Below are positions 8,401 through 60,034 of a stretch of DNA of 64,000 nt, in pieces. The stretch's first letter is position 1. Every line of letters begins with the position of its first letter. The translations under genes were made by a program, and so were the position numbers. The notes below the pieces were generated by a model, which did no database searches, was not told the origin of the DNA, and saw nothing but the letters and a program-made list of their open reading frames with translations. The stretch is from Escherichia coli (GTDB lineage: Bacteria; Pseudomonadota; Gammaproteobacteria; Enterobacterales; Enterobacteriaceae): assembly GCF_003018115.1 (NCBI RefSeq), contig NZ_CP027457.1. One strand, 5' to 3'.

Positions 8401-8405
8401 GGGAT

Positions 8406-32179: not shown

Positions 32180-32381
32180 AGGAACGTAACACGTTTTATG
32201 CAACACCCGCATGCGGCAGAAAATTATTGCCGAACGTTTACCCCTGTCAACAAGCTTTACTTTCTGAGGCGCGCCAGCCCGCGAGGAAAACAATCTGAAC
32301 ATCAAACAATTAATGACACAAGAAATACGATTAAAGATTTTTTTGTGCATGCCGATAGTGCTTTTTTAAAAGGAGAAATCT

Positions 32382-32714
32382 ATGTCTGTCACAATTCAGG
32401 GAAATACCTCAACCGTTATTTCAAACAACTCCGCCCCGGAAGGAACATCAGAAATAGCCAAAATCACAAGACAAATTCAGGTGCTGACTGAAAAGCTTGG
32501 GAAAATCTCATCGGAAGAGGGGATGACGACACAGCAGAAAAAAGAAATGGCTGCATTGGTACAGAAGCAAATTGAAAGCCTCTGGGCTCAACTGGAGCAG
32601 TTGTTAAGGCAGCAGGCAGAGAAAAAGAATGAAGACGCGACAGTTCAGCCTGATAAAAAAGAAGAGAAAAAAGACGATACAAATACCGCTGGCACCATTG
32701 ATATTTACGTCTAA
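32382..32714 (+). CDS. flxA: FlxA (FliA-regulated protein)
   Basis: 110 aa MSVTIQGNTSTVISNNSAPEGTSEIAKITRQIQVLTEKL. Confidence 0.85.
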   Translation: MSVTIQGNTSTVISNNSAPEGTSEIAKITRQIQVLTEKLGKISSEEGMTTQQKKEMAALVQKQIESLWAQLEQLLRQQAEKKNEDATVQPDKKEEKKDDTNTAGTIDIYV

Positions 32715-32899: not shown

Positions 32900-34600
32900 A
32901 ACTATTTCTGTAGTCACTTTTGTGGGGACAGTCCACAAAACTGCCAACTTCCGCTTCTTGCTCTTAGCGGACATTAGCATAGGCTATTTACCATAACGCC
33001 TCATTACGCGCACCGCCCAGACTGACTCAGCGCGTTTCTGGCATATCCCCGGTAAAACAAGTAACAAACCACCCGAAAATGAACACCAGAAACGCGACTT
33101 AAGAATCTACCCTATGAATGGATATGCACTCAACCGAATCGATCTTGGTTTCAATCTTTTTTATCGGGATCAGGCTTCTTTTTAGGTAACTTCGGGGGCT
33201 TAACTTGCTGATGACTTTGCGTTCGGCGCGTAAGCCAGGGATGGTCAGCTTTAGGTTTAACATAGTATTTTGAGCGTAAATCAATACGGGCATTATCCAC
33301 TCGTTCATGGACACTCTTTTCATCATCCAGTGGTATAGGCTCCGGGCCATCAACATACTTTTCCCAGCCCAGCGCTTTCCCGTCATACAGAACGTTAATT
33401 TCACCGTCAAAGTTCTCGCATACAGTAACAACCGAATGCCTAAGTCGATATCCCCGGCCCTCACTGCGTACCTGAAACGCACTGCTTTTGTACTGGAAAG
33501 TGAGATTTTTAGACAGAACGCGCTTCGCCTGTAGGCTGAAGATATAACCCAGTTCCTCTTCAGAATGGTGCACATCAAGATGAGCATTATCAGTAGTACG
33601 AGGCGACGTAGCGAACCGGTTGTTATAGGCTTCAATAAAGGTCGGCAACCATGCATTTGCTGTTTCAATATCACTGATATTCTGAAGCCGCATTTCTTTG
33701 ACCAGCCTGTCCTGTAGTGTCTGATTGGCGCGCTCTACCCGCCCTTTTGCCTGCGGGCTGTTGGCATGGATTGGCTCGATGCCCAGTGTCTTTATCGCAC
33801 GAGTGAACTGGGTCAGCTCACCTTCCCGCTCTGGGTTATTTACCCTGAATATACTGTGTCTATCAGAGTAGAGAGCGAGCGGTACGCCATGATCATTAAG
33901 GTAACCCCGGAGGGTTTCCATGTAAGCCCGGGTTGTTTCAGCAGGCACAAAACGCAACGCCATCAACGCACTGGTGGCATCATCAATGAAAACGATCAGT
34001 GTACATCTGGGGCCTCGATTTTCAAACCAGTCATGAGGTGAGCCATCAATCTGGATCAGTTCACCGTAAGATGGTCGTCGCATGCGGCGTTGATATATAC
34101 GGGCAATTTTACGACGGCGTTCACGCCATAACCCCTCTTCTATCATCCACTTTCTGAGAGTTTCAACGGATAAAGATAAACCGTGTATCTCGCGCAATTT
34201 TTCGCACGCAAACGTAGGTCCAAAATCAGCGTAACGGCCTTTGAGGAGTGAAATTACTGTTGCTCTGAATTCAGTAGAAAAGGAATTATTAGGACGCTTT
34301 CCACGTCGGTGGGAAACCAGACCAGAAGGCCCTTCATTTCTATACCGTTGCACCAGACGTTTAACCTGCCGAATAGAAATGCCAATGCGTGCCGCAGCTT
34401 GTTCCTGAATAATCTGAAGTCGGTGGAGTTCCTTATGACTCATCGTAACAGTCTCTTTGATCATGAAAAATCCCCCAGAGAATTGTCTGGGGACATTTTA
34501 GAATGGTTCAAAGGGGACATTACAGCTTGGTGTTAACAATAGCCTGCTTCTCCGTGCCTTTCGGCACGTAAGAGGCTAACCTACATGTGTCTAGCATGAA
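32900..34600 (-). mobile_element. Insertion sequence carrying a single DDE transposase (IS481/ISNCY-type); ends not resolved
   Basis: Single 437-aa transposase ORF; terminal inverted repeats could not be assigned by eye. Confidence 0.55.
33151..34464 (-). CDS. DDE transposase with N-terminal HTH and integrase-core (rve) catalytic domain
   Basis: 437 aa; D (IQIDGS), D (YSDRHS), E (GRVERANQ) triad spacing typical of rve. Confidence 0.85.
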   Translation of the reverse strand: MIKETVTMSHKELHRLQIIQEQAAARIGISIRQVKRLVQRYRNEGPSGLVSHRRGKRPNNSFSTEFRATVISLLKGRYADFGPTFACEKLREIHGLSLSVETLRKWMIEEGLWRERRRKIARIYQRRMRRPSYGELIQIDGSPHDWFENRGPRCTLIVFIDDATSALMALRFVPAETTRAYMETLRGYLNDHGVPLALYSDRHSIFRVNNPEREGELTQFTRAIKTLGIEPIHANSPQAKGRVERANQTLQDRLVKEMRLQNISDIETANAWLPTFIEAYNNRFATSPRTTDNAHLDVHHSEEELGYIFSLQAKRVLSKNLTFQYKSSAFQVRSEGRGYRLRHSVVTVCENFDGEINVLYDGKALGWEKYVDGPEPIPLDDEKSVHERVDNARIDLRSKYYVKPKADHPWLTRRTQSHQQVKPPKLPKKKPDPDKKD

Positions 34601-34978: not shown

Positions 34979-35652
34979 TATTCCTCCTACAATCAATGTG
35001 CAATTACATTTAAACACACCTCAATTTGGCCGGACATATAAATATCTAAACCAGAAAAAATCACTTACATAGCGTTACAAACTCTTTAGTCTAAAGGTTC
35101 ATCGTAAAACATTCCCCATACTTATCAGTCCGTTCCGCGCCAGGTAGCTCATTGCCTTATCTGGCAACCTGTAATCAGGTTTCCGCTTTTTCAGTTGGCT
35201 GGTCGTTTAACCGACATAGTTAATCCATTAATCTAGTTGCCGGATGTTGGTGGATTTTCGCGTTTTAGTTGTTCATAAAAGTGCACAGCTTTAACCAGTT
35301 CTTCTGATGTAACTGGGACTGGTGAGGCAGTGAATAAGGCCTGAATTTGATAGTTCGGCCTGTCGTTACAATCCTCTTTTTTCGGTACATATTTCCAGTC
35401 ACCAGACCACTACTTCCCCTGAAAGTCCGTAACGCCTTTTTTCACGTAGCGATATCGCCATGCCACTGGTTTTGCTTGCCCCGCCGTTTCATGCCCTTCC
35501 TGATAATTAATCTCGCTCATTCATCGCCCCACTCATCACAATATGCTTCGACCGGAGTTTTTCCCGCTTCATAGTCATCACGCTAGGATTCGACATCAGC
35601 AGCACTTCCACCGCGTAACTCACCATAGTCCATTAATAGTTCATCCCGCTCT

Positions 35653-35660
35653 TCAAAACT
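35653..35660. repeat. 8-bp target site duplication TCAAAACT (left copy) of IS66-family element
   Basis: Identical 8-mer immediately outside both inverted repeats. Confidence 0.7.
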
Positions 35661-35741
35661 GTAAGCGTCGTCTCAGCACCGTCTGGCAGATCCTGAAATT
35701 CCTGAGAGAATAGTGGACACCAAATATGGTGGACGCAATCC

Positions 35742-36146
35742 ATGAAATCATTAACCGCAGTGCGTAAAAAAAGCCCTAATTATCCCGTTGAGTTCAAAAT
35801 CAAAATGGTTGAACTCTCGCATCGACCAGAGATCTCCGTAGCGCAACTCGCTCGTGAGCATGGGATCAACGATAATTTGCTGTTCAAGTGGCGCCAGTAC
35901 TGGCGCGAAGGAAAACTACGTCCTCCTTCAACAACAGAAAACAACGTGCCTGAGCTGCTCCCGATAACACTTGATGCCGAAGATGTTGTCCCTACAACCT
36001 CCCCCCGGTCACAACCTGTAGCTGCTGCGACACCTGAATCACTCAATATCAGCTGTGAAGTGACGTTCCGGCACGGATCACTCCGTCTGAATGGTGCCAT
36101 CAGCGAAAATATCCTGAACCTGCTGATACGGGAGCTCAAACGTTGA
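35742..36146 (+). CDS. IS66-family accessory protein TnpA (orf1)
   Basis: 134 aa, HTH-like N-terminus, first ORF of element. Confidence 0.85.
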   Translation: MKSLTAVRKKSPNYPVEFKIKMVELSHRPEISVAQLAREHGINDNLLFKWRQYWREGKLRPPSTTENNVPELLPITLDAEDVVPTTSPRSQPVAAATPESLNISCEVTFRHGSLRLNGAISENILNLLIRELKR

Positions 36147-36490
36147 TCCCATTACCATCAGGGACAAAGATCTGGCTGGTCGCTGGCATCACCGATATGA
36201 GAAACGGCTTCAACGGCCTGGCGGCAAAGGTGCAGACGACGCTGAAAGACGATCCGATGTCAGGTCACGTTTTTATCTTCCGTGGGCGTAATGGCAGTCA
36301 GGTAAAGCTCCTCTGGTCTACCGGCGATGGACTGTGTCTGCTGACCAAACGGCTGGAGCGCGGCCGCTTCGCCTGGCCGTCAGCCCGGGATGGCAAAGTG
36401 TTCCTCACACCGGCACAGCTGGCGATGCTGCTGGAAGGTATCGACTGGCGGCAGCCTAAAAGACTGCTTACGTCCCTGACTATGTTGTAA
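36143..36490 (+). CDS. IS66-family TnpB (orf2)
   Basis: 115 aa, 4-nt overlap with tnpA. Confidence 0.85.
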   Translation: MIPLPSGTKIWLVAGITDMRNGFNGLAAKVQTTLKDDPMSGHVFIFRGRNGSQVKLLWSTGDGLCLLTKRLERGRFAWPSARDGKVFLTPAQLAMLLEGIDWRQPKRLLTSLTML

Positions 36491-36538
36491 GCCTCTTTAT
36501 CCTGGTCGACGCTGAATGAGCCTGGTAATATACCCGGT

Positions 36539-38074
36539 ATGAGCAGCTCACTTCCTGACGATATCAATGCACTGAAACGTCTCCTTGCCGAACAGGAGGC
36601 GCTGAACCGTGCCCTGCAGGAAAAGCTGAACGAGCGTGAACGCGAAATAGACCATCTGCAGGCACAGCTGGATAAGCTGCGCCGGATGAACTTCGGCAGC
36701 CGCTCGGAAAAAGTCTCCCGTCGTATCGCACAGATGGAAGCTGACCTGAAGGCACTTCAGAAAGAAAGTGATACCCTTACCGGTCGGGTTGACGACCCGG
36801 CCGTGCAGCGCCCGCTGCGTCAAACCCGCACCCGCAAACCGTTCCCCGAATCACTCCCCCGCGATGAAAAACGGCTGCTGCCGGCAGCGTCATGCTGCCC
36901 GGAATGTGGAGGCTCGCTGAGCTATCTGGGTGAGGATGCCGCCGAACAGCTGGAGCTGATGCGCAGCGCCTTCCGGGTTATCCGGACTGTACGTGAAAAG
37001 CATGCCTGTACTCAGTGCGATGCCATCGTGCAGGCCCCCGCGCCTTCACGGCCCATCGAGCGGGGTATCGCAGGACCGGGGCTGCTGGCCCGCGTGCTGA
37101 TCTCAAAGTATGCAGAGCACACCCCGCTGTACCGCCAGTCTGAAATGTACGGCCGCCAGGGCGTGGAGCTGAGTCGTTCACTGCTGTCGGGCTGGGTGGA
37201 TGCATGCTGCCGGCTACTGTCACCGCTGGAAGAAGCGCTTCAGGACTATGTGCTGACTGACGGTAAGCTCCATGCTGATGACACGCCTGTCCCGGTGCTG
37301 TTGCCAGGCAATAAGAAAACGAAGACCGGGCGGTTATGGACCTACGTTCGTGACGACCGTAACGCCGGGTCAACGCTGGCGCCGGCGGTGTGGTTCGCTT
37401 ACAGCCCGGACAGAAAAGGCATCCATCCGCAGACCCATCTTGCGGGGTTCAGTGGTGTACTGCAGGCGGATGCATACGCCGGGTTCAACGAGCTGTACCG
37501 GGATGGCCGGATAACGGAAGCCGCCTGTTGGGCTCACGCCCGCCGTAAAATCCACGATGTGCACGTTCGCACCCCGTCAGCCCTGACGGAGGAAGCGCTG
37601 AAACGGATCGGCGAACTGTACGCCATCGAGGCAGAGATAAGGGGAATGACGGCGGAGCAGCGCCTTGCCGAACGTCAGTTGAAAACGAAACCGCTGCTGA
37701 AATCCCTGGAAAGCTGGCTGCGTGAAAAGATGAAAACCCTGTCGCGACACTCAGAACTGGCGAAAGCGTTCGCATACGCCCTGAACCAGTGGCCGGCGCT
37801 GACGTACTATGCAGATGATGGCTGGGCTGAGGCGGACAATAACATCGCTGAAAATGCGTTGCGGATGGTCAGTCTGGGCCGCAAAAACTACCTGTTCTTC
37901 GGTTCGGATCATGGAGGAGAGCGGGGAGCGCTGCTGTACAGCCTGATCGGGACGTGCAAACTGAACGGAGTGGAGCCAGAAAGCTACCTCCGCTATGTCC
38001 TTGACGTCATAGCCGACTGGCCGATAAACCGGGTCGGCGAACTGCTCCCCCTGGCGCGTAGCACTGCCGACTGA
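36539..38074 (+). CDS. IS66-family transposase TnpC (orf3)
   Basis: 511 aa, N-terminal leucine zipper, Cys-x2-C zinc motif, DDE core. Confidence 0.9.
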
Positions 38075-38115
38075 ATAACACATCCCCGTCAATACGGTTC
38101 TTGCTGCACGCTTAC

Positions 38116-38123
38116 TCAAAACT
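38116..38123. repeat. 8-bp target site duplication TCAAAACT (right copy)
   Basis: Matches left copy at 35653-35660. Confidence 0.7.
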
Positions 38124-38593
38124 GATGTTATATTTAGCTGAACAAAAATCAGCCACTTTGTTCTTCCTCATCGTCTTTTATTTCGTGGTATGAGTAATTG
38201 CAGTAGTTAAAGAAAATTTCTTATGCTCCGTCATGAATTTCCTCAGGTGTTGCGTCATCGTCCACTTCGAATACATCCTCAAAATCTCCACCAGCTATTC
38301 CCGTTTCAATAATAATTTTGAACTTTCGCATTTCACTACCGCCCTTTCGGGCGGCCTCCTGATGTTCTGAGGGTGCAGAAATCCATCCGGTTAAGGATTA
38401 AATTTTATTTACAGAACTGAATTTAATTATTCAGATATACGTATCTGTAGCCTTACGAATCTACTCACTGGATGCCTCTTTCATAAAAATAATCCAGTGG
38501 GTTTTATCGTTTTTTCCCTGTTCGTTGACAGATAACAGGTTTTCTGTCTGTCAGTGCCAGAATCTGGCTTACCGGTATTTGCGTTTCATTCCA

Positions 38594-38950
38594 TTAAAAA
38601 ATCAGAACGCCGTGCGGCCTCAACACCCGAAAGGCTTCTTTAAATCTCTGTCGCGAATCATCACGCCAGGCATCTTTATTCAGCCGTCCATATTTCTTTC
38701 CCATCCAGGCGTTATCACCAACACTCTCAAGATGCGGAGGGTCTAATACAACCATCGAAAAAGATGCGTCTGCAAATGATAATGCACGAAAATCTGCGAT
38801 AATGTCAGGGCTGATAATCAAGCGTCTCCCATTGCGTAATGTGTATCCTTCTTTTCTGATATCGCTGAATATCGCCCGTTCGTCAGACTTATCGAACCAG
38901 AACATGCGGCTGCCACAGCACATATCAAGAATGGTTGCCGGTGCACTCAC
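38594..38950 (-). pseudogene. Truncated SAM-dependent methyltransferase-like ORF (motif I then DPPH)
   Basis: 118 aa is too short for a full Rossmann MTase; in-frame TAA followed by about 32 further sense codons. Confidence 0.4.
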
Positions 38951-43226: not shown

Positions 43227-43318
43227 AACAGTTCCGTAATAAATATCCGGTTTCATTCTTATATGCCAGCAATGGCAGGGATTTGTTCATCCTTAAATCT
43301 GTCATGAGGTTAAAACAA

Positions 43319-45790
43319 ATGAGTAAAGTCTTTATTTGCGCCGCTATTCCTGACGAACTGGCAACAAGGGAAGAAGGCGCTGTGGCTGTAGCCACAGCCA
43401 TTGAAGCTGGCGACGAACGCCGTGCTCGAGCAAAATTTCACTGGCAATTCCTGGAACATTATCCGGCTGCTCAGGACTGCGCTTATAAATTTATTGTCTG
43501 CGAGGATAAACCTGGCATACCCCGCCCTGCCCTCGATTCATGGGATGCTGAATATATGCAGGAAAACCGCTGGGATGAGGAGTCTGCTTCTTTTGTCCCG
43601 GTTGAGACTGAATCCGATCCGATGAACGTCACTTTTGACAAGCTGGCCCCTGAAGTACAGAACGCTGTCATGGTTAAGTTCGACACATGTGAAAACATCA
43701 CCGTTGATATGGTTATTAGCGCACAGGAATTGTTGCAGGAAGACATGGCAACATTCGACGGACATATCGTTGAAGCGTTGATGAAAATGCCAGAAGTTAA
43801 CGCCATGTATCCGGAGCTTAAGTTGCACGCCATTGGGTGGGTTAAGCATAAATGTATTCCTGGTGCTAAATGGCCCGAAATTCAGGCAGAGATGCGCATC
43901 TGGAAAAAACGTCGCGAAGGTGAACGCAAGGAAACCGGAAAATACACGTCTGTTGTTGATCTCGCCCGCGCCAGAGCCAATCAACAGTACACTGAAAATT
44001 CAACAGGAAAAATCAGCCCGGTCATTGCTGCCATTCATCGCGAATACAAGCAGACATGGAAAACACTGGATGACGAACTGGCCTACGCTCTCTGGCCTAG
44101 TGATGTGGATGCCGGAAACATTGACGGCAGCATCCATCGCTGGGCAAAAAAAGAAGTTATCGACAACGACCGCGAAGACTGGAAGCGTATCTCGGCATCA
44201 ATGCGCAAACAGCCTGATGCCCTTCGCTACGACCGCCAAACTATTTTTGGCCTTGTCCGTGAGCGTCCGATCGACATTCACAAAGATCCCGTAGCACTGA
44301 ACAAATATATCTGCGAATACCTGACGACAAAGGGCGTGTTTGAGAATGAAGAAACAGACCTGGGCACTGTTGATGTTCTCCAGTCATCAGAAACACAAAC
44401 TGATGCAGTGGAAACTGAGGTATCTGATATCCCAAAAAATGAAACCGCGCCGGAAGCTGAACCATCTGTAGAGCGTGAGGGGCCGTTCTATTTCCTCTTC
44501 GCAGATAAGGACGGAGAAAAATACGGTCGCGCAAACAAACTCTCTGGTCTGGATAAGGCACTGGCTGCTGGCGCCACTGAAATCACAAAAGAAGAATATT
44601 TTGCCCGAAAAAATGGCACATACACGGGCTTACCGCAAAATGTAGATACCGCTGAAGATTCAGAACAACCAGAGCCGATAAAAGTTACCGCTGACGAAGT
44701 AAACAAAATTATGCAGGCAGCCAATATCAGCCAGCCTGACGCCGATAAGTTGCTTGCTGCATCACGTGGTGAATTTGTTGAAGGGATTAGTGACCCGAAT
44801 GATCCGAAATGGGTTAAGGGGCTCCAGACCCGCGATTCTGTGAACCAGAACCAGCATGAATCGGAACGGAACTACCAAAAAGCGGAACAAAACAGTCCAA
44901 ATGCGTTACAAAACGAGCCAGAAACGAAACAGCCTGAACCAGTAGCGCAACAGGAAGTGGAAAAAGTCTGCACCGCCTGCGGTCAGACCGGCGGCGGCAA
45001 CTGCCCTGATTGTGGCGCGGTGATGGGCGACGCAACATACCAAGAAACATTCGATGAAGAGTATCAGGTTGAAGTTCAGGAAGATGATCCGGAGGAAATG
45101 GAAGGCGCTGAACATCCACACAAGGAGAACACTGGCGGCAATCAGCATCACAATAGCGATAATGAAACTGGCGAGACGGCAGATCACCCAATTAAGGTGA
45201 ACGGTCATCACGAAATCACATCCACCAGCAGGACGTGTGACCATCTAATGATCGACCTTGAAACCATGGGAAAAAATCCTGATGCCCCGATCATCTCAAT
45301 AGGTGCAATATTTTTCGATCCGCAAACCGGAGATATGGGACCGGAATTTAGTAAGACTATCGATCTGGAAACTGCTGGCGGAGTCATTGATCGGGACACC
45401 ATTAAATGGTGGCTTAAGCAATCACGCGAAGCGCAATCTGCCATTATGACCGATGAAATCCCGTTAGATGATGCACTGTTACAATTGCGAGAATTTATCG
45501 ACGAAAACTCCGGTGAATTTTTTGTTCAGGTTTGGGGAAATGGAGCCAACTTCGACAACACGATTTTGCGCCGTTCATACGAACGGCAGGGGATCCCCTG
45601 CCCGTGGCGTTACTACAACGATCGCGATGTACGCACAATCGTTGAGCTGGGGAAAGCCATAGACTTCGATGCCAGAACGGCTATTCCATTCGAAGGTGAG
45701 CGCCATAATGCACTTGATGACGCCCGTTACCAGGCAAAATACGTTTCAGTTATCTGGCAAAAACTGATCCCGAGTCAGGCTGATTCTTAA
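43319..45790 (+). CDS. ydfE: Full-length YdfE-type protein: large N-terminal region, acidic linker, Cys4 zinc ribbon, C-terminal DEDDh 3'-5' exonuclease domain
   Basis: ORF track 43283-45790; start chosen at MSKVFICAAIPDEL after GAGG; Exo I DLE, Exo II GNGANFD, Exo III HNALDDARY motifs in the last ~190 aa. Confidence 0.7.
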   Translation: MSKVFICAAIPDELATREEGAVAVATAIEAGDERRARAKFHWQFLEHYPAAQDCAYKFIVCEDKPGIPRPALDSWDAEYMQENRWDEESASFVPVETESDPMNVTFDKLAPEVQNAVMVKFDTCENITVDMVISAQELLQEDMATFDGHIVEALMKMPEVNAMYPELKLHAIGWVKHKCIPGAKWPEIQAEMRIWKKRREGERKETGKYTSVVDLARARANQQYTENSTGKISPVIAAIHREYKQTWKTLDDELAYALWPSDVDAGNIDGSIHRWAKKEVIDNDREDWKRISASMRKQPDALRYDRQTIFGLVRERPIDIHKDPVALNKYICEYLTTKGVFENEETDLGTVDVLQSSETQTDAVETEVSDIPKNETAPEAEPSVEREGPFYFLFADKDGEKYGRANKLSGLDKALAAGATEITKEEYFARKNGTYTGLPQNVDTAEDSEQPEPIKVTADEVNKIMQAANISQPDADKLLAASRGEFVEGISDPNDPKWVKGLQTRDSVNQNQHESERNYQKAEQNSPNALQNEPETKQPEPVAQQEVEKVCTACGQTGGGNCPDCGAVMGDATYQETFDEEYQVEVQEDDPEEMEGAEHPHKENTGGNQHHNSDNETGETADHPIKVNGHHEITSTSRTCDHLMIDLETMGKNPDAPIISIGAIFFDPQTGDMGPEFSKTIDLETAGGVIDRDTIKWWLKQSREAQSAIMTDEIPLDDALLQLREFIDENSGEFFVQVWGNGANFDNTILRRSYERQGIPCPWRYYNDRDVRTIVELGKAIDFDARTAIPFEGERHNALDDARYQAKYVSVIWQKLIPSQADS

Positions 45791-46114: not shown

Positions 46115-46148
46115 CTAAAAGCCACACTAACTAATGAGAGAAGTTGAA

Positions 46149-47429
46149 ATGAAATATCCGACAGGCGTGGAAAACCATGGAGGGAAATTACGTATCTGGT
46201 TTGTTTATAAAGACGTAAGAGTCAGGGAAAATCTGGGGGTTCCTGACACAGCAAAAAACAGGCGCGTTGCAGGTGAACTACGCTCCTCTGTTTGTTACGC
46301 AATAAAAACTGGTGTTTTCGACTATGCAAAACAGTTTCCCTCCTCACGCAATCTGGAAAAATTTGGTGAGGCCCGACAAGATTTAACCATAAAAGAACTG
46401 GCTGAAAAATTTCTGGCACTGAAAGAAACTGAAGTCGCCAAAACATCACTCAACACATACCGTGCCGTCATCAAAAATATCCTGAGCATAATCGGTGAAA
46501 AAAATCTTGCCTCATCGATTAATAAAGAAAAATTACTGGAGGTTCGTAAAGAGTTACTGACTGGATACCAGATCCCCAAAAGTAACTATATTGTTACACA
46601 ACCAGGGAGATCGGCTGTAACTGTAAATAATTACATGACAAATCTTAACGCCGTGTTCCAGTTTGGTGTTGATAACGGTTACCTGGCAGATAATCCGTTT
46701 AAGGGGATCTCGCCATTAAAGGAATCAAGAACCATTCCGGATCCTCTTTCGCGGGAAGAATTTATCCGTCTTATCGATGCGTGCAGAAATCAGCAAGCAA
46801 AAAATTTATGGTGTGTTTCTGTTTATACTGGAGTTCGCCCTGGTGAGCTGTGTGCACTTGGATGGGAGGACATAGATCTGAAAAATGGAACAATGATGAT
46901 CAGGAGAAATTTAGCAAAAGACCGTTTCACGGTACCAAAAACACAGGCGGGAACCAATCGGGTCATTCATCTTATTAAGCCAGCAATCGACGCTCTCCGG
47001 AGTCAGATGACATTAACGAGACTGAGCAAAGAGCATATCATTGATGTTCACCTCAGAGAGTATGGCAGAACAGAAAAACAAAAATGCACCTTTGTTTTTC
47101 AACCTGAAGTGTCAGCGAGAGTAAAAAATTATGGTGACCATTTTACCGTTGACTCAATAAGGCAGATGTGGGACGCAGCGATAAAACGTGCCGGACTCCG
47201 CCATCGAAAATCATATCAGTCGAGACATACTTATGCCTGCTGGTCGCTGACAGCTGGTGCTAACCCGGCATTTATAGCAAACCAGATGGGCCATGCAGAT
47301 GCGCAAATGGTATTTCAGGTATACGGAAAATGGATGTCTGAAAACAATAATGCACAGGTAGCTTTGTTAAATACACAGTTAAGCGAGTTTGCCCCAACCA
47401 TGCCCCATAACGAAGCAATGAAAAATTAA
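46149..47429 (+). CDS. intQ: Tyrosine recombinase / phage integrase (full-length)
   Basis: ORF track 46134-47429; C-terminal catalytic region with R...HxxR...Y pattern (ending HTYACW). Confidence 0.85.
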   Translation: MKYPTGVENHGGKLRIWFVYKDVRVRENLGVPDTAKNRRVAGELRSSVCYAIKTGVFDYAKQFPSSRNLEKFGEARQDLTIKELAEKFLALKETEVAKTSLNTYRAVIKNILSIIGEKNLASSINKEKLLEVRKELLTGYQIPKSNYIVTQPGRSAVTVNNYMTNLNAVFQFGVDNGYLADNPFKGISPLKESRTIPDPLSREEFIRLIDACRNQQAKNLWCVSVYTGVRPGELCALGWEDIDLKNGTMMIRRNLAKDRFTVPKTQAGTNRVIHLIKPAIDALRSQMTLTRLSKEHIIDVHLREYGRTEKQKCTFVFQPEVSARVKNYGDHFTVDSIRQMWDAAIKRAGLRHRKSYQSRHTYACWSLTAGANPAFIANQMGHADAQMVFQVYGKWMSENNNAQVALLNTQLSEFAPTMPHNEAMKN

Positions 47430-47616
47430 TTTAATATTTATCAAATAGTTAACACGCATGACTCTTGAAATCCATAAATTCAAGCGCAGTGCCCAGCCAT
47501 CCCGATACCGCTGCTTTCACCAAATCCTTAGTGCTTCTTTCGTGTTTTTCTATTGTCATAATGGTTATCTCTAAAAAAGAGGTAAGATGCGTACTACTTA
47601 CTCGCCGTTATTGGTA

Positions 47617-48636
47617 TTATTCAGAAAAAGTGAGTAAGACTTTGCAGCAATGTTTTTGATCCTGTTCAAATAAACTAATGGCATCAGCAACATGCTGGAA
47701 ATCAAACGTATGGGTAATTAATTTTTCTGGTTTAATTAACCCTTTACTTAACCAGTCGATAACGACCGGAAATTTATTTGCATTTAAGCGTGAAGAGAAA
47801 ATAGAGAGTTCTTTTCCGGTAATTCCTTGCTGAATCACTTCAGACGGTTCACTGGAGAACCCCATCAATACAATACGTGCCGCTGGAGAAGCCAGCGTTA
47901 CGGCCTCTTTCAAGATAGAAGGATGACAAGCCGCATCGATAATTAATGTCGGCTTGATGCCTTTTTCAGTGAAAATCTCGCCAAGCGGTGTCTGGCTGTT
48001 ATTAATCGCCCAGTCAGCCCCGCTCTCTTTCGCTTTTTCCAGTCGTTCATCAATGCGATCGGCAACAATCACATTTTTAACGTTATAGACGCCTTTTAAT
48101 ACCTGAACGATCGTCAGGCCGATTGGACCGGCACCATAAACCAGAACGGTATCATTTTCTGTCGGTTGACCATGTCCGGTTACGTTAGCCGCAATGGTAA
48201 AAGGTTCGATCATTACCGCATATTGATCGGCCACTGCTTCAGGAATTTTCCACGCATTTTTTGCCGGAACCACGGCATATTCACTGAAACCACCGTCAGC
48301 GTGCACACCTAATACAGCCAGTGTCATACAAACGTTCGGTTTACCTATAGAGCACGGATAGCAATGCCCACAGCTGACCACCGGATCGACAGCAACACGT
48401 TCACCGACTCTGGCGCTTTCCACGCCGTCACCCACTGCATCAATGACGCCAAAGAATTCATGACCAATGACGCGCGGATATTTCGCAAAAGGATTATGCC
48501 CACGATAAATATGGCTATCTGAACCACAAATTCCGGCAAGTTTCACTTTTACTCGTACTTCACCCGCTGACGGGGTGGGTATTTCACGTTCGACAATCGC
48601 CAGTTGATTCGGTTTTTCAATTAATATGCTTTTCAT
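47617..48636 (-). CDS. rspB: Zn-dependent alcohol dehydrogenase family protein RspB
   Basis: ORF track 47617-48660 trimmed to MKSILIEKPN, 339 aa; GHEFFG and Cys zinc ligands. Confidence 0.9.
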   Translation of the reverse strand: MKSILIEKPNQLAIVEREIPTPSAGEVRVKVKLAGICGSDSHIYRGHNPFAKYPRVIGHEFFGVIDAVGDGVESARVGERVAVDPVVSCGHCYPCSIGKPNVCMTLAVLGVHADGGFSEYAVVPAKNAWKIPEAVADQYAVMIEPFTIAANVTGHGQPTENDTVLVYGAGPIGLTIVQVLKGVYNVKNVIVADRIDERLEKAKESGADWAINNSQTPLGEIFTEKGIKPTLIIDAACHPSILKEAVTLASPAARIVLMGFSSEPSEVIQQGITGKELSIFSSRLNANKFPVVIDWLSKGLIKPEKLITHTFDFQHVADAISLFEQDQKHCCKVLLTFSE

Positions 48637-48647
48637 TATCTTACTCC

Positions 48648-49862
48648 TTACCAGTTCCACAGCGTGCCATCTTCCAGACGTGCGACTGGTAGATAAGCAG
48701 GTTCATAGGGATATTTCGCCGCCAGCTTTTCATCGAATTCGATACCAAGACCCGGTTTGTCTCCCGGATGCATATAGCCGTTATCGAAAGTCCAGTTGTG
48801 CGGGAAGACTTCGAGCATTTGTTCGGAATAACCCATGTATTCCTGGACACCGAAATTGGGGACCCACAGATCAAAATGCAGCGCCGCAGCCATGCAGACT
48901 GGTGACAAATCGGAAGGACCGTGTGAGCCAGTACGTACCTGATACAGCGAAGCAAAATCGGCAATCCGGCGCATACCGGTAATTCCGCCTGTATGGGTCA
49001 GCGTGGTGCGGATATAATCGATAAGTTGCTCTTCAATCAGTTGCTTGCAGTCCCAGATGCTGTTGAAGACTTCACCCACTGCGATGGGTGTGACGGTATG
49101 TTGGCGAATGAGACGGAAGCATTCCTGGTTTTCCGCAGGCGTCGGGTCTTCCATCCAGAACATGCGATAATCTTCAATGCTTTTACCAAAGCGCGCCGCT
49201 TCAATAGGCGTTAAGCGATGGTGCATGTCATGCAGCAAATGTTCATTAAAACCAAACTTGTTACGTACCGCGTCAAACAATTTCGGCATGAAATCGAGGT
49301 ATTTCTCCGTCGACCACAGCTGCTCTTCCGGCCACTGTCCTTTGGTTGCGGGTTCATAAGCCAGACCTTTACCTTTCGACATGCCGTAGGTGGTTTTCAT
49401 ACCAGGGATTCCGCACTGCACGCGGATGGCTTTGAATCCCAGCTCCTGATGACGGGCATAATCATCCAGAGCTTCATCAATACTGTGACCGGTGGTATGG
49501 CAATAAACCATCACCCCTTCACGAGACGCGCCGCCGAGTAACTGGTAAAGCGGCATGTTGGCAGCTTTGGCTTTAATATCCCACAGCGCCATATCAACCG
49601 CTGAAATGGCCGACATCGTAACCGGACCGCGACGCCAGTAAGCACCTTTATAGAAAAACTGCCAGATATCTTCGATACGGTGCGCATCGCGACCAATAAG
49701 CTGCGGACAAAGGTGATCCTGCAAATAAGAGGCCACGGAAAGCTCACGTCCATTGAGGGTGGCATCCCCAAGGCCCGTAATACCGTCCTCAGTGGTGATT
49801 TTTAATGTGACGAAATTACGCCCCGGACAGGTAACAAAAACTTCAGCCTTTACGATCTTCAT
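48648..49862 (-). CDS. rspA: Starvation-sensing protein RspA (enolase superfamily, mannonate dehydratase-like)
   Basis: ORF track 48648-49895 trimmed to [10 protein letters not shown], 404 aa. Confidence 0.9.
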
Positions 49863-50067
49863 GTTCGATTCCTTGCATCGCTTGTCGTGATGCATGAAAT
49901 CTACGCAACTGAGCTACTACCATACAAGTATGAAGATCAAAAAAAGCCGGAGTGATCACAAAAAAAGGCGTATATTTTCGCCATGAATGGTTGACAAAAG
50001 ATGAAATAGAGTACCTTTTATCAGCTGACGCTTCCTCGTATCTTATTGATAAAATGGATTTATGTTC

Positions 50068-50394
50068 CTACGTGCGCCCCCAGCCCGCAACAATGATCAA
50101 CATGCCGCAAAGCGCAATCAACGCACCCATCCAGTCATAAAGAGTCAGTTTCACGCCATCCACAACGCGCAGCCACATCAACGCCGTGCAGACATAAACG
50201 CCACCATAAGCCGCGTAAACACGCCCACTCGCCGCAGGATGCAACGTTAACAACCAGACAAACAGCGCCAGTGAAATCCCCGCCGGAAGCAACAGCCAGA
50301 TACTGGCGTTTCGTTTTAACCACAACCAGGGCAGAAAGCATCCAATAATTTCACACAGCGCAGTAGCAAAAAATAGTAACGTTGTTTTAATCAT
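50068..50394 (-). CDS. ynfA: UPF0060 inner membrane protein YnfA
   Basis: 108 aa, four TM segments. Confidence 0.85.
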
Positions 50395-50528
50395 CTTTGT
50401 CACTTATTGACATCATGTATAGTTATAGGGCCACATAATATCATCAATATAAACACCCTCCTGGTACGTTTTGCGTTCGCAGTGGATGGTGTAGAATCAC
50501 CTTTAATCATTCATACAGGGAATGAATT

Positions 50529-50870
50529 ATGAAAATCACTCTCAGCAAACGAATCGGCCTGCTCGCTTTTCTGCTGCCTTGCGCACTGGCATTGAGCACA
50601 ACTGTTCATGCCGAAACTAACAAACTGGTGATTGAGTCTGGCGACAGTGCACAAAGCCGCCAGCACGCCGCTATGGAAAAAGAGCAATGGAATGACACGC
50701 GCAATCTGCGTCAGAAAGTGAATAAACGCACTGAAAAAGAGTGGGATAAAGCCGACGCCGCTTTTGATAACCGCGATAAATGTGAGCAAAGCGCCAACAT
50801 CAATGCCTACTGGGAGCCCAATACTTTGCGCTGCCTGGACCGTCGAACTGGCCGCGTTATTACCCCCTAA
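50529..50870 (+). CDS. ynfB: Secreted protein YnfB
   Basis: 113 aa with signal peptide. Confidence 0.85.
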
Positions 50871-50904
50871 CCTGTTATTGATTTAAGGAATGTAAGGACA
50901 CGTT

Positions 50905-51465
50905 ATGCCAAGCGCCCACAGTGTTAAGCTACGCCCGCTGGAGCGTGAAGATTTACGCTATGTACATCAACTCGACAATAACGCCAGTGTGATGCGTTAC
51001 TGGTTTGAGGAACCCTACGAAGCCTTTGTTGAACTCTCTGATCTGTATGATAAGCATATTCACGATCAGAGCGAACGGCGCTTTGTGGTGGAATGTGACG
51101 GCGAAAAAGCCGGTCTGGTGGAGCTGGTGGAAATTAACCATGTTCATCGCCGCGCAGAATTTCAGATAATTATCTCCCCGGAGTATCAGGGGAAAGGTCT
51201 GGCAACCCGTGCCGCCAAATTAGCAATGGACTATGGCTTCACCGTTCTCAATCTCTATAAGCTGTATCTGATCGTCGATAAAGAGAATGAAAAAGCGATT
51301 CACATTTACCGCAAGCTTGGCTTTACGGTTGAAGGTGAATTGATGCATGAGTTCTTTATTAATGGTCAATATCGTAATGCCATTCGCATGTGTATATTCC
51401 AGCATCAGTATCTGGCAGAGCACAAAACACCGGGTCAGACTCTCCTGAAGCCGACCGCACAATAG
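50905..51465 (+). CDS. speG: Spermidine N1-acetyltransferase SpeG (GNAT)
   Basis: 186 aa, SpeG sequence. Confidence 0.95.
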
Positions 51466-51467
51466 CA

Positions 51468-52178
51468 TTAATAATAATCGATCGTATTTTTGATGGTGTA
51501 AACCCGTTCGACGGCGGGTTTTACTCCTTCATCAACAATGATCAGCTGACAGTCCACCGGATTGGCGTGACTGTCATATTCACAGCTCTGTTTTACATTA
51601 CCAACTCGTTGATTATTCAGTAAAGTAACCGCTGTGTAATCTAATTTTTTGATCGGGTCCGTTGATGGCGTGGCGCTGACAGATAATGTTTTGTCGTTAC
51701 TTTTCGTGGTTTTACCCAGTGGATAACCCTGATCATCATAGCGATATTCCATCTGCATTTGTTTGCTGCTGGCTTTAATCACGAAGCCATTATCATCGGT
51801 TTCCCAACTCACCCCGGCGGAAGGTAATTCCGCTAGCTGGCATTTTCCCTGTAAACGTACTCTCTTCTCCAGCGTCTCGGCATCACGGTAATAATTGGCG
51901 TCCAGTACCAGAGCGACCACGGTATTATTTTCCAGATCCAGTAATTCGAGTGAATCAAAACAGCCTTCTTCCGACAAAGTCCCCGAAACACGTTTCGTCA
52001 CTTCACCTTGCTCATCCATTAATGTCTGAGTGAAATCTTTTACCGGACCACGCAGCGGATCAAAATCGAATTCATTAGAGAAACTGGCCATCTCAGGAGT
52101 AAATGAAAGTGTTACCTCTGTGCGGTCACATCCTGTGAGGAATATCGCGAGTAAGCATGGTAGTAATTTGTATTTCAC
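51468..52178 (-). CDS. ynfC: Lipoprotein YnfC
   Basis: ORF track 51468-52214; lipobox LTGC; start probably the alternative codon at V13 giving 236 aa. Confidence 0.8.
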   Translation of the reverse strand: MKYKLLPCLLAIFLTGCDRTEVTLSFTPEMASFSNEFDFDPLRGPVKDFTQTLMDEQGEVTKRVSGTLSEEGCFDSLELLDLENNTVVALVLDANYYRDAETLEKRVRLQGKCQLAELPSAGVSWETDDNGFVIKASSKQMQMEYRYDDQGYPLGKTTKSNDKTLSVSATPSTDPIKKLDYTAVTLLNNQRVGNVKQSCEYDSHANPVDCQLIIVDEGVKPAVERVYTIKNTIDYY

Positions 52179-52285
52179 AACAGTCACCAGAGAGTAGAGA
52201 TGATTCTCAATCATAGTAGCAAATACAGTACTTTACACGTTAAATGCTATGCTTAAAGAAGTTATCTTCGCGTAAGGAGCTTATG

Positions 52286-52591
52286 ATGAAACTCTCAACC
52301 TGCTGTGCCGCGCTTCTGCTCGCCCTCGCCTCACCCGCGGTACTTGCCGCGCCGGGATCCTGTGAGCGCATACAGAGCGATATATCACAGCGCATTATCA
52401 ATAATGGCGTACCCGAAAGCAGCTTCACGTTAAGTATTGTACCCAATGACCAGGTTGATCAGCCTGATTCCCAGGTCGTCGGGCATTGTGCTAATGATAC
52501 GCATAAAATTCTCTACACCCGCACCACCAGCGGTAACGTCTCTGCTCCCGCGCAGTCTACCCAGGATGGCGCGCCTGCCGAACCGCAGTAA
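52286..52591 (+). CDS. ynfD: Secreted protein YnfD
   Basis: ORF track 52244-52591 trimmed to MKLSTCCAALLLALASPAVLA, 101 aa. Confidence 0.8.
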   Translation: MKLSTCCAALLLALASPAVLAAPGSCERIQSDISQRIINNGVPESSFTLSIVPNDQVDQPDSQVVGHCANDTHKILYTRTTSGNVSAPAQSTQDGAPAEPQ

Positions 52592-52789
52592 CACATTATC
52601 GACTGAACGCCGGATATGACACATCCGGCGATTTGAACATACAACATAATCCCACCATATTACTCATACCCTTCTATTGATGTGGATTAATAATTCTTAA
52701 CCCAAAATGGGTAGACTTCCTCTATTGTTAGCGCGCTAAATATTCAATATATAAACATTTATATAACGATAAAGAACAGGGAGTGAGTT

Positions 52790-55216
52790 ATGTCAAAAAA
52801 TGACCGAATGGTGGGCATCAGCCGCAGAACACTCGTTAAATCTACCGCGATAGGTTCTCTGGCGCTGGCTGCAGGCGGTTTTTCTTTGCCGTTTACCCTG
52901 CGCAGTGCAGCAGCAGCGGTACAACAGGCCCGCGAAAAAGTGGTCTGGGGTGCCTGTTCCGTCAACTGTGGTAGCCGCTGTGCACTTCGTCTACATGTTA
53001 AAGATAATGAAGTGACCTGGGTGGAAACTGACAATACCGGCAGCGATGAGTACGGCAACCATCAGGTACGCGCCTGTTTGCGCGGTCGCTCCATCCGCCG
53101 GCGTATTAATCATCCCGATCGCTTGAATTACCCAATGAAACGCGTGGGTAAACGCGGTGAAGGCAAATTCGAACGGATTAGCTGGGATGAAGCCCTGGAT
53201 ACTATCGCCAGTAGCCTGAAGAAAACCGTCGAACAATATGGCAATGAGGCTGTATATATTCAGTACTCTTCGGGGATCGTTGGCGGCAATATGACCCGCT
53301 CTTCGCCATCAGCCTCGGCGGTCAAACGCCTGATGAACTGCTACGGCGGTTCACTCAATCAGTATGGCTCCTACAGCACCGCACAAATTTCCTGTGCCAT
53401 GCCCTACACCTACGGCAGTAATGATGGCAACAGCACCACGGATATTGAAAACAGCAAGCTGGTCGTGATGTTTGGTAACAACCCGGCAGAAACCCGCATG
53501 AGCGGCGGTGGCATCACTTATCTTCTTGAAAAAGCGCGCGAGAAATCGAACGCCAAAATGATTGTTATCGATCCGCGATATACCGATACGGCTGCTGGTC
53601 GTGAAGATGAATGGCTTCCTATTCGCCCGGGCACCGATGCCGCGCTGGTTGCGGGGATTGCCTGGGTATTGATTAACGAAAATCTCGTTGATCAACCTTT
53701 TCTCGATAAATACTGCGTCGGCTATGACGAAAATACCTTACCCGCAGATGCACCCAAAAATGGTCACTATAAAGCCTATATTCTTGGTGAAGGAAACGAT
53801 AAAACAGCGAAAACGCCGCAGTGGGCTTCGCAAATTACCGGTATCCCGGTGGACCGTATCATCAAACTGGCGCGTGAAATTGGCACAGCAAAACCCGCTT
53901 ATATCTGCCAGGGCTGGGGGCCACAACGCCAGGCAAACGGCGAGCTGACCGCACGCGCTATTGCTATGTTGCCTATTCTGACGGGCAATGTCGGCATCAG
54001 CGGCGGAAATAGTGGCGCGCGTGAATCGACCTATACCATTACCATAGAACGCCTGCCGGTGCTGGATAATCCGGTCAAAACGTCAATCTCCTGCTTCAGC
54101 TGGACAGATGCTATCGATCATGGCCCGCAAATGACGGCAATCCGCGACGGCGTCCGGGGCAAAGATAAACTGGATGTGCCCATTAAGTTCATCTGGAACT
54201 ACGCGGGAAATACCCTGGTTAATCAGCATTCTGACATCAACAAAACGCATGAAATTCTGCAGGACGAATCGAAATGCGAAATGATTGTGGTCATCGAAAA
54301 CTTTATGACCTCATCGGCAAAATATGCCGACATTCTGCTGCCAGACCTGATGACCGTTGAGCAGGAAGATATTATTCCTAACGACTACGCCGGTAACATG
54401 GGATATCTCATTTTCCTCCAGCCAGTCACCAGCGAAAAATTCGAACGTAAACCGATTTACTGGATCCTGAGTGAAGTCGCGAAACGTCTTGGACCTGACG
54501 TCTATCAAAAGTTCACTGAAGGTCGCACGCAGGAACAATGGTTACAACATCTGTACGCCAAAATGCTTGCCAAAGATCCGGCGTTACCGTCTTACGACGA
54601 ACTGAAAAAAATGGGTATCTATAAGCGTAAAGATCCCAATGGTCATTTTGTCGCCTACAAAGCATTTCGTGACGACCCCGAGGCAAATCCACTTAAAACA
54701 CCTTCCGGTAAGATTGAAATTTATTCCAGCAAGCTGGCTGAAATTGCCCGTACCTGGGAACTGGAAAAAGATGAAGTGATAAGCCCACTGCCAGTTTATG
54801 CCTCTACCTTTGAAGGCTGGGACTCACCTGAACGTAGAACCTTCCCACTGCAACTGTTTGGTTTCCATTACAAATCCCGTACTCACTCGACCTACGGCAA
54901 TATTGATCTCCTGAAGGCTGCCTGCCGTCAGGAGGTGTGGATCAACCCTATAGATGCGCAGAAACGTGGGATTGCCAACGGCGATATGGTGCGGGTGTTT
55001 AACAATCGTGGCGAAGTTCGGCTACCAGCCAAAGTGACACCACGTATTCTCCCTGGAGTTAGCGCTATGGGCCAGGGAGCCTGGCACGAGGCCAATATGT
55101 CTGGCGATAAAATCGACCATGGAGGCTGTGTGAATACGCTAACCACTCTGCGCCCTTCACCACTGGCGAAGGGAAACCCGCAGCATACGAATCTGGTCGA
55201 GATCGAAAAAATATAA
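52790..55216 (+). CDS. ynfE: Molybdopterin oxidoreductase, DMSO/selenate reductase-type catalytic subunit YnfE (Tat signal)
   Basis: 808 aa, twin-arginine motif SRRTLVK, Cys cluster CSVNCGSRC. Confidence 0.9.
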   Translation: MSKNDRMVGISRRTLVKSTAIGSLALAAGGFSLPFTLRSAAAAVQQAREKVVWGACSVNCGSRCALRLHVKDNEVTWVETDNTGSDEYGNHQVRACLRGRSIRRRINHPDRLNYPMKRVGKRGEGKFERISWDEALDTIASSLKKTVEQYGNEAVYIQYSSGIVGGNMTRSSPSASAVKRLMNCYGGSLNQYGSYSTAQISCAMPYTYGSNDGNSTTDIENSKLVVMFGNNPAETRMSGGGITYLLEKAREKSNAKMIVIDPRYTDTAAGREDEWLPIRPGTDAALVAGIAWVLINENLVDQPFLDKYCVGYDENTLPADAPKNGHYKAYILGEGNDKTAKTPQWASQITGIPVDRIIKLAREIGTAKPAYICQGWGPQRQANGELTARAIAMLPILTGNVGISGGNSGARESTYTITIERLPVLDNPVKTSISCFSWTDAIDHGPQMTAIRDGVRGKDKLDVPIKFIWNYAGNTLVNQHSDINKTHEILQDESKCEMIVVIENFMTSSAKYADILLPDLMTVEQEDIIPNDYAGNMGYLIFLQPVTSEKFERKPIYWILSEVAKRLGPDVYQKFTEGRTQEQWLQHLYAKMLAKDPALPSYDELKKMGIYKRKDPNGHFVAYKAFRDDPEANPLKTPSGKIEIYSSKLAEIARTWELEKDEVISPLPVYASTFEGWDSPERRTFPLQLFGFHYKSRTHSTYGNIDLLKAACRQEVWINPIDAQKRGIANGDMVRVFNNRGEVRLPAKVTPRILPGVSAMGQGAWHEANMSGDKIDHGGCVNTLTTLRPSPLAKGNPQHTNLVEIEKI

Positions 55217-55273
55217 CCCACTACAACCATAAATTCTGGCATGACATTTTGTTTGAAAAGCAATAAGTGAGTA

Positions 55274-57700: not shown

Positions 57701-57710
57701 GGAGTAGCCC

Positions 57711-58328
57711 ATGACCACACAATATGGATTTTTTATCGATTCCAGCCGCTGTACTGGCTGTAAAACCTGCGAACTGGCGTGCAAAGATTTTAAAGATCTT
57801 GGCCCGGAAGTCAGTTTCCGCCGTATTTATGAATATGCTGGCGGCGACTGGCAGGAAGATAATGGCGTCTGGCACCAGAACGTGTTCGCTTATTATCTCT
57901 CCATCTCCTGTAACCATTGCGATGACCCCGCATGTACAAAAGTCTGCCCCAGCGGCGCAATGCATAAGCGTGAAGATGGCTTTGTGGTGGTTGATGAAGA
58001 TGTTTGTATCGGCTGCCGCTACTGCCACATGGCTTGTCCGTACGGCGCGCCACAGTACAATGCTGAAAAAGGACACATGACGAAGTGCGATGGTTGTTAT
58101 TCGCGCGTCGCCGAGGGGAAACAACCCATATGTGTCGAATCCTGCCCACTGCGTGCACTTGAGTTCGGTCCAATTGAAGAGCTGCGCCAGAAGCACGGCA
58201 CTCTTGCTGCCGTCGCGCCACTGCCGCGCGCGCATTTCACAAAACCCAATATCGTTATCAAACCTAACGCCAACAGCCGCCCGACCGGCGATACCACTGG
58301 TTATCTGGCTAATCCGGAGGAAGTGTAA
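57711..58328 (+). CDS. ynfG: 4Fe-4S ferredoxin-type electron transfer subunit YnfG (DmsB-like)
   Basis: 205 aa with four CxxCxxCxxxCP clusters. Confidence 0.9.
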   Translation: MTTQYGFFIDSSRCTGCKTCELACKDFKDLGPEVSFRRIYEYAGGDWQEDNGVWHQNVFAYYLSISCNHCDDPACTKVCPSGAMHKREDGFVVVDEDVCIGCRYCHMACPYGAPQYNAEKGHMTKCDGCYSRVAEGKQPICVESCPLRALEFGPIEELRQKHGTLAAVAPLPRAHFTKPNIVIKPNANSRPTGDTTGYLANPEEV

Positions 58329-58329
58329 A

Positions 58330-59184: not shown

Positions 59185-59226
59185 CAAATTGGTGCGGGGC
59201 AACCCGCACATTTCAGGATGTTAGGA

Positions 59227-59841
59227 ATGACCCATTTTTCACAGCAAGATAATTTTTCTGTCGCGGCGCGCGTGTTGGGCGCGCTGTTTTATTACGCTCC
59301 AGAGAGTGCGGAAGCCGCACCTCTGGTTGCGGTACTCACCCGTGACGGCTGGGAAACTCAGTGGCCTCTACCAGAAGCGTCATTAGCGCCGCTGGTGACG
59401 GCTTTTCAGACACAGTGTGAAGAGACTCACGCCCAGGCCTGGCAGCGTTTGTTTGTCGGCCCGTGGGCACTGCCGTCTCCGCCGTGGGGGTCGGTCTGGC
59501 TGGATCGCGAATCTGTGCTGTTTGGCGATTCAACATTGGCACTTCGTCAGTGGATGCGCGAGAAAGGCATTCAGTTTGAAATGAAGCAAAACGAACCGGA
59601 AGATCATTTTGGTTCACTGCTGTTGATGGCTGCGTGGTTGGCGGAGAATGGTCGCCAGACAGAATGCGAAGAATTGCTGGCATGGCACCTTTTTCCCTGG
59701 TCAACACGTTTTCTTGACGTTTTTATCGAAAAAGCAGAACACCCTTTCTACCGTGCACTGGGTGAACTGGCTCGCTTAACGCTGGCGCAATGGCAATCAC
59801 AACTGTTGATTCCTGTCGCGGTTAAACCACTCTTTCGATAG
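59227..59841 (+). CDS. dmsD: Tat proofreading chaperone DmsD
   Basis: ORF track 59218-59841 trimmed to MTHFSQQDNFS, 204 aa. Confidence 0.9.
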   Translation: MTHFSQQDNFSVAARVLGALFYYAPESAEAAPLVAVLTRDGWETQWPLPEASLAPLVTAFQTQCEETHAQAWQRLFVGPWALPSPPWGSVWLDRESVLFGDSTLALRQWMREKGIQFEMKQNEPEDHFGSLLLMAAWLAENGRQTECEELLAWHLFPWSTRFLDVFIEKAEHPFYRALGELARLTLAQWQSQLLIPVAVKPLFR

Positions 59842-60034
59842 GATGACCGTAATATTGCCGGATAGTGGCGATTACGCGCAATTCGGCAATAATAGGTTAC
59901 AGTGTCACGTTTTTTGTCTCTTAAAGCACGCACTGCTTTTGCAGCTGGCCTCTTTTGCCGCAAAATAGTCGCCCGTGTTTCATTGCCCATTTCTGCTCAT
60001 GCATCATCTACACACCTATCCGGATCTGCGCACT

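Follow-up and report, generated by a model that had tools for sequence, protein, structure and literature searches.

An ISEc22 insertion in an already decayed region of the cryptic Qin prophage of Escherichia coli

Introduction

Insertion sequences of the IS66 family combine a tnpABC gene set with an 8-bp target duplication (PMC6778807) and possess terminal inverted repeats of 20-30 bp which begin with GTAAGCG (PMC11946415). The prototypes IS66 and IS679, from the Agrobacterium Ti plasmid and an EPEC plasmid, respectively, are distant members which have the family hallmarks in common with the element described below and which can be likened to it by description. Han et al. reportedly found in 2001 that transposition of IS679 needs all three ORFs. 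Another member of the family, ISEc22, has been catalogued with a length of 2454 bp (table, PMC5001619), and its 8-bp direct repeat has been reported in Klebsiella (PMC4048246). ISEc8, an IS66-family element of E. coli, also exhibits the tnpA-tnpB-tnpC organisation; it is a separate named IS, with a nucleotide divergence of ~15% from the element studied here.

This element was found in a 64-kb stretch of E. coli DNA (the window, which hereafter denotes the whole stretch analysed). It has the three-gene layout, the GTAAGCGT ends and the 8-bp duplication of ISEc22, and copies to which PGAP gives the ISEc22 name are 100% identical to it. Judged by these names and by its length, the window element is an ordinary copy of ISEc22. 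Almost certainly, it transposed once, in an ancestor, into an already dead ORF of the Qin prophage, and was then passed down within a lineage of about 89 strains. Such an event is ordinary and already known, ISEc22 being catalogued and the exact insertion being annotated in ~89 RefSeq complete genomes.

Boundaries and coding content of the element

The element and its borders comprise the following features:

35653-35660, no strand: left copy of the 8-bp target-site duplication, TCAAAACT, which is single-copy in the empty site of ATCC 8739
35661-35684, plus strand: left terminal inverted repeat (IRL), GTAAGCGTCGTCTCAGCACCGTCT, with the same end in three independent copies
35742-36146, plus strand: tnpA, HTH accessory protein of 134 aa (Pfam HTH_Tnp_1, 9e-12; NCBIfam IS66_ISRel24_TnpA, 82.8 bits, cut-off 74)
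36143-36490, plus strand: tnpB (IS66 Orf2), 115 aa (Pfam PF05717 TnpB_IS66, 1.6e-38; NCBIfam IS66_TnpB, 119.9 bits, cut-off 50)
36539-38074, plus strand: tnpC, DDE transposase, 511 aa in the window allele (Pfam domains; NCBIfam transpos_IS66, 467.8 bits, cut-off 180)
38047-38051, plus strand: C5 homopolymer which alters the last 8 codons of tnpC, most ISEc22 copies having C4
38092-38115, minus strand: right terminal inverted repeat (IRR), ending in ...ACGCTTAC, with a terminal match to IRL
38116-38123, no strand: right copy of the 8-bp target-site duplication, TCAAAACT

The element measures 2455 bp (35661-38115) and is directly abutted on both sides by TCAAAACT, an octamer which occurs nowhere else on the plus strand of the 64-kb window. 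A first-pass annotation, made from the letters of the window, had described an IS66-family tnpA-tnpB-tnpC element whose inverted repeats begin with GTAAGCGT and which is bordered by a clean 8-bp duplication. This description was borne out to the base: the two octamers are identical, and the GTAAGCGT... and ...ACGCTTAC ends form an inverted match at 8/8 terminal positions and at 16/24 across the first 24 nt. Among random pairs of 24-mers from the window, a match of at least 16/24 has a frequency of ~2.5e-5, and both GTAAGCGT and its complement occur once in the window. With the boundaries fixed, the probability that the 8-bp flanks match by chance is 4^-8 (~1.5e-5). Since the bases beyond the octamers differ, the direct repeat is exactly 8 bp long. 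The octamers were also considered as a chance match or as a piece of a longer repeat; both were rejected in view of the differing outside bases (CCCGCTCT vs ACGCTTAC) and of the single copy in the empty site. The G+C content is 57% in the element vs 45-46% in the 2 kb on each side.

Four independent identical copies were compared with the window element. Three of the four, located at unrelated loci, share its boundaries, and each is enclosed by a perfect 8-bp duplication of its own (TACAAATC, CAACAAAT and CATCATAC), and the fourth, which adjoins an IS5 remnant, has no duplication. The shared ends confirm the boundaries of the element independently of the window.

All three genes are supported by family profiles. 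The tnpA product is annotated as WP_000839179.1 in the 100%-identical copies and in the near-identical occupied locus of strain 6409. The TTG start of tnpB overlaps the tnpA stop (TTGA), and its product, which matches the TnpB_IS66 profile at positions 2-100 of 101, is an IS66 Orf2-type TnpB unrelated to IS605 TnpB. Four Pfam domains were found in TnpC, namely LZ_Tnp_IS66, zf-IS66, DDE_Tnp_IS66 and IS66_C, the DDE domain being matched at profile positions 1-283 of 284 (5e-107, 357.9 bits). These four domains and TnpB_IS66 score above the curated Pfam gathering cut-offs. A search for solved structures related to TnpC or TnpB returned no PDB relatives at E <= 0.01. Collectively, the overlapping tnpAB, the tnpC gene with its DDE, zipper, zinc-finger and C-terminal domains, the type of TnpB, the inverted repeats and the 8-bp duplication are the hallmarks of IS66 elements.

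A megablast search of 5426 complete E. coli genomes identified copies which are 100% identical across all 2455 bp, on chromosomes as well as on plasmids. These copies are named 'IS66-like element ISEc22 family transposase' by PGAP and are accompanied by tnpA and tnpB. In total, 2191 genomes contain one place which covers at least 80% of the IS. The window copy differs from catalogued ISEc22 in length (2455 vs 2454 bp), which is explained by an extra C at 38047-38051, a C5 run in place of the C4 found in most copies. The C4 frame encodes a TnpC of 512 aa with a different ending from the 511-aa protein of the C5 form. In every copy identical to that of the window, PGAP labels tnpC as 'frameshifted', with an end 4 nt past the ORF, a label which is due to the C5 run.

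Empty and occupied sites

A 652-nt empty-site query, in which the flanks were fused around one TCAAAACT, matched 483 records with at least 99% identity, and ATCC 8739, W, IAI39, 042 and CE10 are among the genomes matched at 100%. At lower identity thresholds, 1539 genomes match at least 80% of the query at a single place. When ATCC 8739 is aligned to the window, the alignment is interrupted precisely at 35661 and 38116, and the flanks are free of mismatches for 1.6 kb on the left of the insertion and for 2.2 kb on its right. Empty sites with a single TCAAAACT prove that the element entered by simple insertion. The simple transposition proposed at first reading is thus upheld by empty sites identical over 652 nt and by mismatch-free nearby flanks in ATCC 8739; the search for the empty site in related strains, for which PCR had been suggested, succeeded in silico.

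The occupied configuration, queried with window positions 35300-38500, was found in 88 records, corresponding to 89 genomes of human, bovine, turkey and environmental origin. Among the occupied genomes listed, identity is 100.0% through the IS and across the two junctions, and all of them share one orientation and the C5 allele; several occupied genomes are also 100% identical to the window along the left 25 kb of the prophage. In five occupied genomes, ISEc22 itself has been split by an IS3-family element. Only about 5% of Qin-bearing genomes are occupied, and the insertion is young on the scale of the species. The earlier wording 'probably recent' overstates the case for an insertion which is lineage-wide in ~89 genomes and which has been secondarily hit by an IS3-family element in five of them. 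An identical insertion common to ~89 complete genomes represents a lineage marker rather than a strain-specific event, and its stability makes it of practical use, as the occupied and empty Qin sites can be scored with a single PCR.

The Qin prophage and the target of the insertion

The element which hosts ISEc22 is the cryptic lambdoid prophage Qin, integrated in ydfJ. This context was derived from the annotations of the collinear genomes 6409, F41 and ATCC 8739, which are more than 99.6% identical, 6409 differing from the window by one mismatch in 18.7 kb. Qin genes lie on both sides of the insertion, including dicA, dicC, dicB, ydfA-D, relBE, hokD, rem, flxA, ydfV, ydfU, ydfT (Q), cspB/F/I, essD and rrrQ. 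The prophage also encodes an integrase, an excisionase, an exonuclease, lysis genes and a full lambda-like head and tail module. It is flanked by truncated ydfJ, with ynfE, ynfF and clcB to its right. The early-right genes, on the minus strand of the window, comprise a ydaT-like gene, an O-like gene, a DUF977 gene and a SAM-methyltransferase gene. The early-region position given by the first-pass annotation proved correct, the IS lying in the early-right part of Qin, downstream of the methyltransferase gene. The features relevant to the insertion are:

32382-32714, plus strand: flxA, on the strand opposite to the early-right operon and 2.9 kb from the IS
33421-34464: truncated ISNCY transposase gene, an older remnant between ISEc22 and flxA
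35099-35520, minus strand: next downstream pseudogene (hypothetical; frameshifted, with an internal stop), annotated by PGAP in 6409, ATCC 8739 and F41 and mapped to the window
35517-35660, minus strand: 3' part of the split pseudogene, homologous to ArgO145 gp14, with an in-frame TAG at 35583-35585
38124-38156, minus strand: 5' part of the split pseudogene homologous to ArgO145 gp14, codons 1-11, with a GTG start
38149-38331, minus strand: DUF7167 pseudogene, interrupted by an internal stop and directly preceding the split ORF in the prophage operon; its intact counterpart is ArgO145 gp15
38594-38950, minus strand: SAM-methyltransferase gene
46134-47429: integrase ORF

The IS splits a small minus-strand ORF between codons 11 and 12. 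Once reconstructed, this ORF is homologous to the 58-aa gp14 of phage ArgO145 (H116), with a match of 77.6% identity, and 163 phage records match it overall. It overlaps the stop of the DUF7167 gene by 8 nt, and gp14 and gp15 of ArgO145 overlap likewise. The TAG at 35583-35585 of the Qin ORF corresponds to Trp37 in ArgO145. Both this TAG and the internal stop of the DUF7167 gene are present, in identical sequence, in the genomes with an empty site, so that the IS landed in an already non-functional stretch. The notion that the insertion interrupts a working gene could therefore not be retained: the gp14 homologue had decayed through its TAG, and its DUF7167 neighbour carried an internal stop, before the IS arrived. 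The insertion illustrates how cryptic prophages gather insertion sequences in already decayed regions. For the pseudogene at 35099-35520, an origin as an Ea22-like remnant, comparable to ArgO145 gp13, was considered and rejected, as tblastn gave no match. The gene ydfW is also located downstream of the IS in the minus-strand operon.

Transposition would have followed the DDE-transposase route usual for the IS66 family, with the early-right region of Qin as its target. Staggered cuts 8 bp apart were likely repaired into the TCAAAACT duplication, leaving the IS genes antisense to the prophage operon and splitting a small gp14-like ORF which already carried a stop codon. One such event in an ancestor, followed by inheritance, would account for the lineage of ~89 sequenced strains.

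Alternative explanations

The uniform position, orientation, allele and flanks of the occupied genomes point to a single origin of the insertion. Alternatively, the site could be a hot spot struck several times independently by ISEc22 rather than inherited by descent. Some target preference is indeed possible, since all four duplications of the window allele are A/T-rich (25-37.5% G+C); however, independent strikes are hard to reconcile with the complete identity of the listed genomes over the IS and junctions, their common orientation and C5 allele, the identity of several of them with the window throughout the left 25 kb of Qin, and the 1539 genomes in which the site is still empty, which makes recurrent insertion extremely unlikely. 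Hardly more probable is a polar block of the Qin early-right transcript, by which the IS would silence downstream genes such as flxA, as the first-pass annotation had suggested. The insertion lengthens the minus-strand operon, past the methyltransferase gene, by 2.45 kb of antisense untranslated DNA, so that transcripts reading through from the dicC promoter could in principle be subject to polarity, and two terminator-like hairpins are found on the minus strand within the IS. However, the 8 terminator-like sites between 34400 and 39400 are within the expectation from shuffled sequences (4.7 +/- 2.1), and promoter-like sites in the same interval show no excess (4 vs 4.7 in shuffles); counts at the level of shuffles give no support either way for polarity or for outward promoters. 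Furthermore, the genes directly downstream are already pseudogenes and an ISNCY remnant in the empty-site strains, relBE-hokD have their own promoters, and the operon is repressed by DicA in the prophage state (DicA/DicC). As for flxA, it is encoded on the other strand, beyond the ISNCY remnant, and is preceded by its own sigma-28-type promoter, TAAAGATT-N11-GCCGATAG, which closely matches the sigma-28 consensus. Its expression has been reported to be sigma-F dependent (PMC1935009) and, given this dependence together with the strand, the promoter and the intervening remnant, flxA is not expected to undergo polar silencing. A polar effect, if there is one, would instead concern the pseudogenes, the ISNCY remnant and ydfW, and the insertion is probably without functional or phenotypic consequence.

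While these alternatives concern the history and effects of the insertion, the C5 run bears on the mobility of the element itself. The frameshift flagged by PGAP in tnpC means that the window copy may be non-autonomous, the additional C inactivating TnpC and restricting mobility to cells in which an intact TnpC from ISEc22 or ISEc8 acts in trans. PGAP applies this flag to all identical copies, and in the C4 frame the protein regains the conserved terminal Trp of the IS66 C-terminal element and matches IS66_C more fully (66.3 bits and 39/39 profile positions vs 61.4 bits and 38/39 for C5). The exact C4 form is also the commoner one, with 1934 records vs 370 for the exact C5 form (85/86-nt probe, counted on the best place per record). 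Helpers are plausible, since ISEc22 is frequent, with a median of 2 places per genome matching the 3'-end probe, and since 3553 records contain full-IS matches in the 80-90% identity range to which ISEc8 belongs. On the other hand, only the last 8 of the 511 residues are altered, and none of the four domains is damaged, the DDE core being complete. The exact C5 allele is present at at least four independent sites with perfect 8-bp duplications, and in 370 records; it has thus been mobile after the extra C was acquired, whether by itself or with the help of TnpC acting in trans. A defective copy is consequently possible, with the balance leaning against it. The broader reading, which falls just short of an even chance, is that the window ISEc22 belongs to a +1 C sub-lineage in which the TnpC tail has been replaced and which nevertheless occupies those sites and records in E. 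coli, whether self-moving or trans-mobilised. The C5 allele offers a small natural test of the need for the C-terminal tail of IS66 transposases: if the element moves alone, their extreme C-terminus would be dispensable, and if it does not, intact copies of ISEc22 or ISEc8 would be mobilising it in trans as a widespread 'parasite'.

Qin in related strains

Compared with the Qin remnant of K-12, which is presumably shorter, the window version keeps the O-like, DUF977 and methyltransferase genes and the full lambda-like head and tail module. The Qin prophage of F41 contains a copy of ISEc8 which is ~85% identical to the window IS over 2.1 kb; it occupies another Qin site, between flxA and ydfV, and the window is devoid of ISEc8. 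Additional insertions of IS1, IS3 and ISEc8 are present in the Qin prophages of related strains.

Decay of the Qin operon around the ISEc22 insertion

The prophage operon that received ISEc22 (window 35661-38115) also carries an older IS remnant, decayed small phage genes and a terminator-like hairpin, all on the minus strand.

33151-34464, minus: uninterrupted 437-aa ORF with HTH and rve_3 matches
33421-34464, minus: truncated ISNCY-family transposase, annotated by PGAP as one piece of this ORF
33151-33300, minus: ydfW, annotated by PGAP as its other piece
35517-35660 / 38124-38156, minus: gene similar to gp14 of phage ArgO145, one in-frame stop
38149-38331, minus: DUF7167 gene, one in-frame stop
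38605-38628, minus: terminator-like hairpin followed by TGATTTTTTA, overlapping the methyltransferase gene at its 3' end

The 437-aa ORF is the remnant of an older IS located in the same operon as the ISEc22 site, and it is also found in empty-site strains, which have the same Qin site without ISEc22. The DUF7167 and gp14-like genes are adjoining small phage genes which overlap by 8 nt. As both of their stops are common to hundreds of E. coli genomes, this 'nin-like' stretch of Qin represents conserved pseudogenisation. In the direction of transcription, the hairpin is located upstream of ISEc22 and, if functional, early-right transcripts would end before the insertion site.

On the opposite strand, a promoter motif directly precedes flxA.

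32331-32357, plus: sigma-28-type motif TAAAGATT-N11-GCCGATAG
32382-32714: flxA

This predicted promoter fits with the sigma-F dependence reported for flxA (PMC1935009).

Target duplications and tnpC allele of ISEc22

The tnpC gene of the window copy contains a C5 run (38047-38051), while most ISEc22 copies have C4 (1934 exact-sequence records for C4 vs 370 for C5). The C5 run alters the final eight TnpC residues, and PGAP labels all C5 copies as frameshifted. This allele is present at several loci at which the 8-bp duplications are intact.

Window, 35653-35660: TCAAAACT
L003, L005 and L006 (loci of three identical copies), 1493-1500: TACAAATC, CAACAAAT and CATCATAC

All four duplications are A/T-rich (25-37.5% G+C), which hints, in this small sample (n = 4), at a mild target preference.

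Comparison with complete genomes and related strains

Between window positions 28749 and 47500 (18.7 kb), strain 6409, which shares the ISEc22 insertion, differs by one base only, located in an exonuclease gene.

43283-45790, plus: intact exonuclease ORF (835 aa), G at 44459

Strain 6409 has a T at this position and an exonuclease gene whose annotation includes an internal stop. Because of this near identity, and because the best complete genomes are 100% identical to window 1-25000 vs only 99.3% to 39001-64000, the chromosomal flank at 47500-64000 (ynfE, ynfF and clcB side) seems, from sequence comparison, to contain a divergent and possibly recombinant segment, or else the genome from which the window comes is absent from the collection.

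Relatives sharing the ISEc22 insertion have accumulated extra IS insertions in Qin, at 7040-9352 and 10417-11630 of the F41 locus, at 1697-2394 of the 6409 locus and in the occupied-site matches H56-H60. In related strains, ISEc8 lies between flxA and ydfV, relE is struck by IS3, IS1 is accompanied by deletion of the cspB-cspF-ydfT region and, in some of them, ISEc22 itself holds an IS3-family element.
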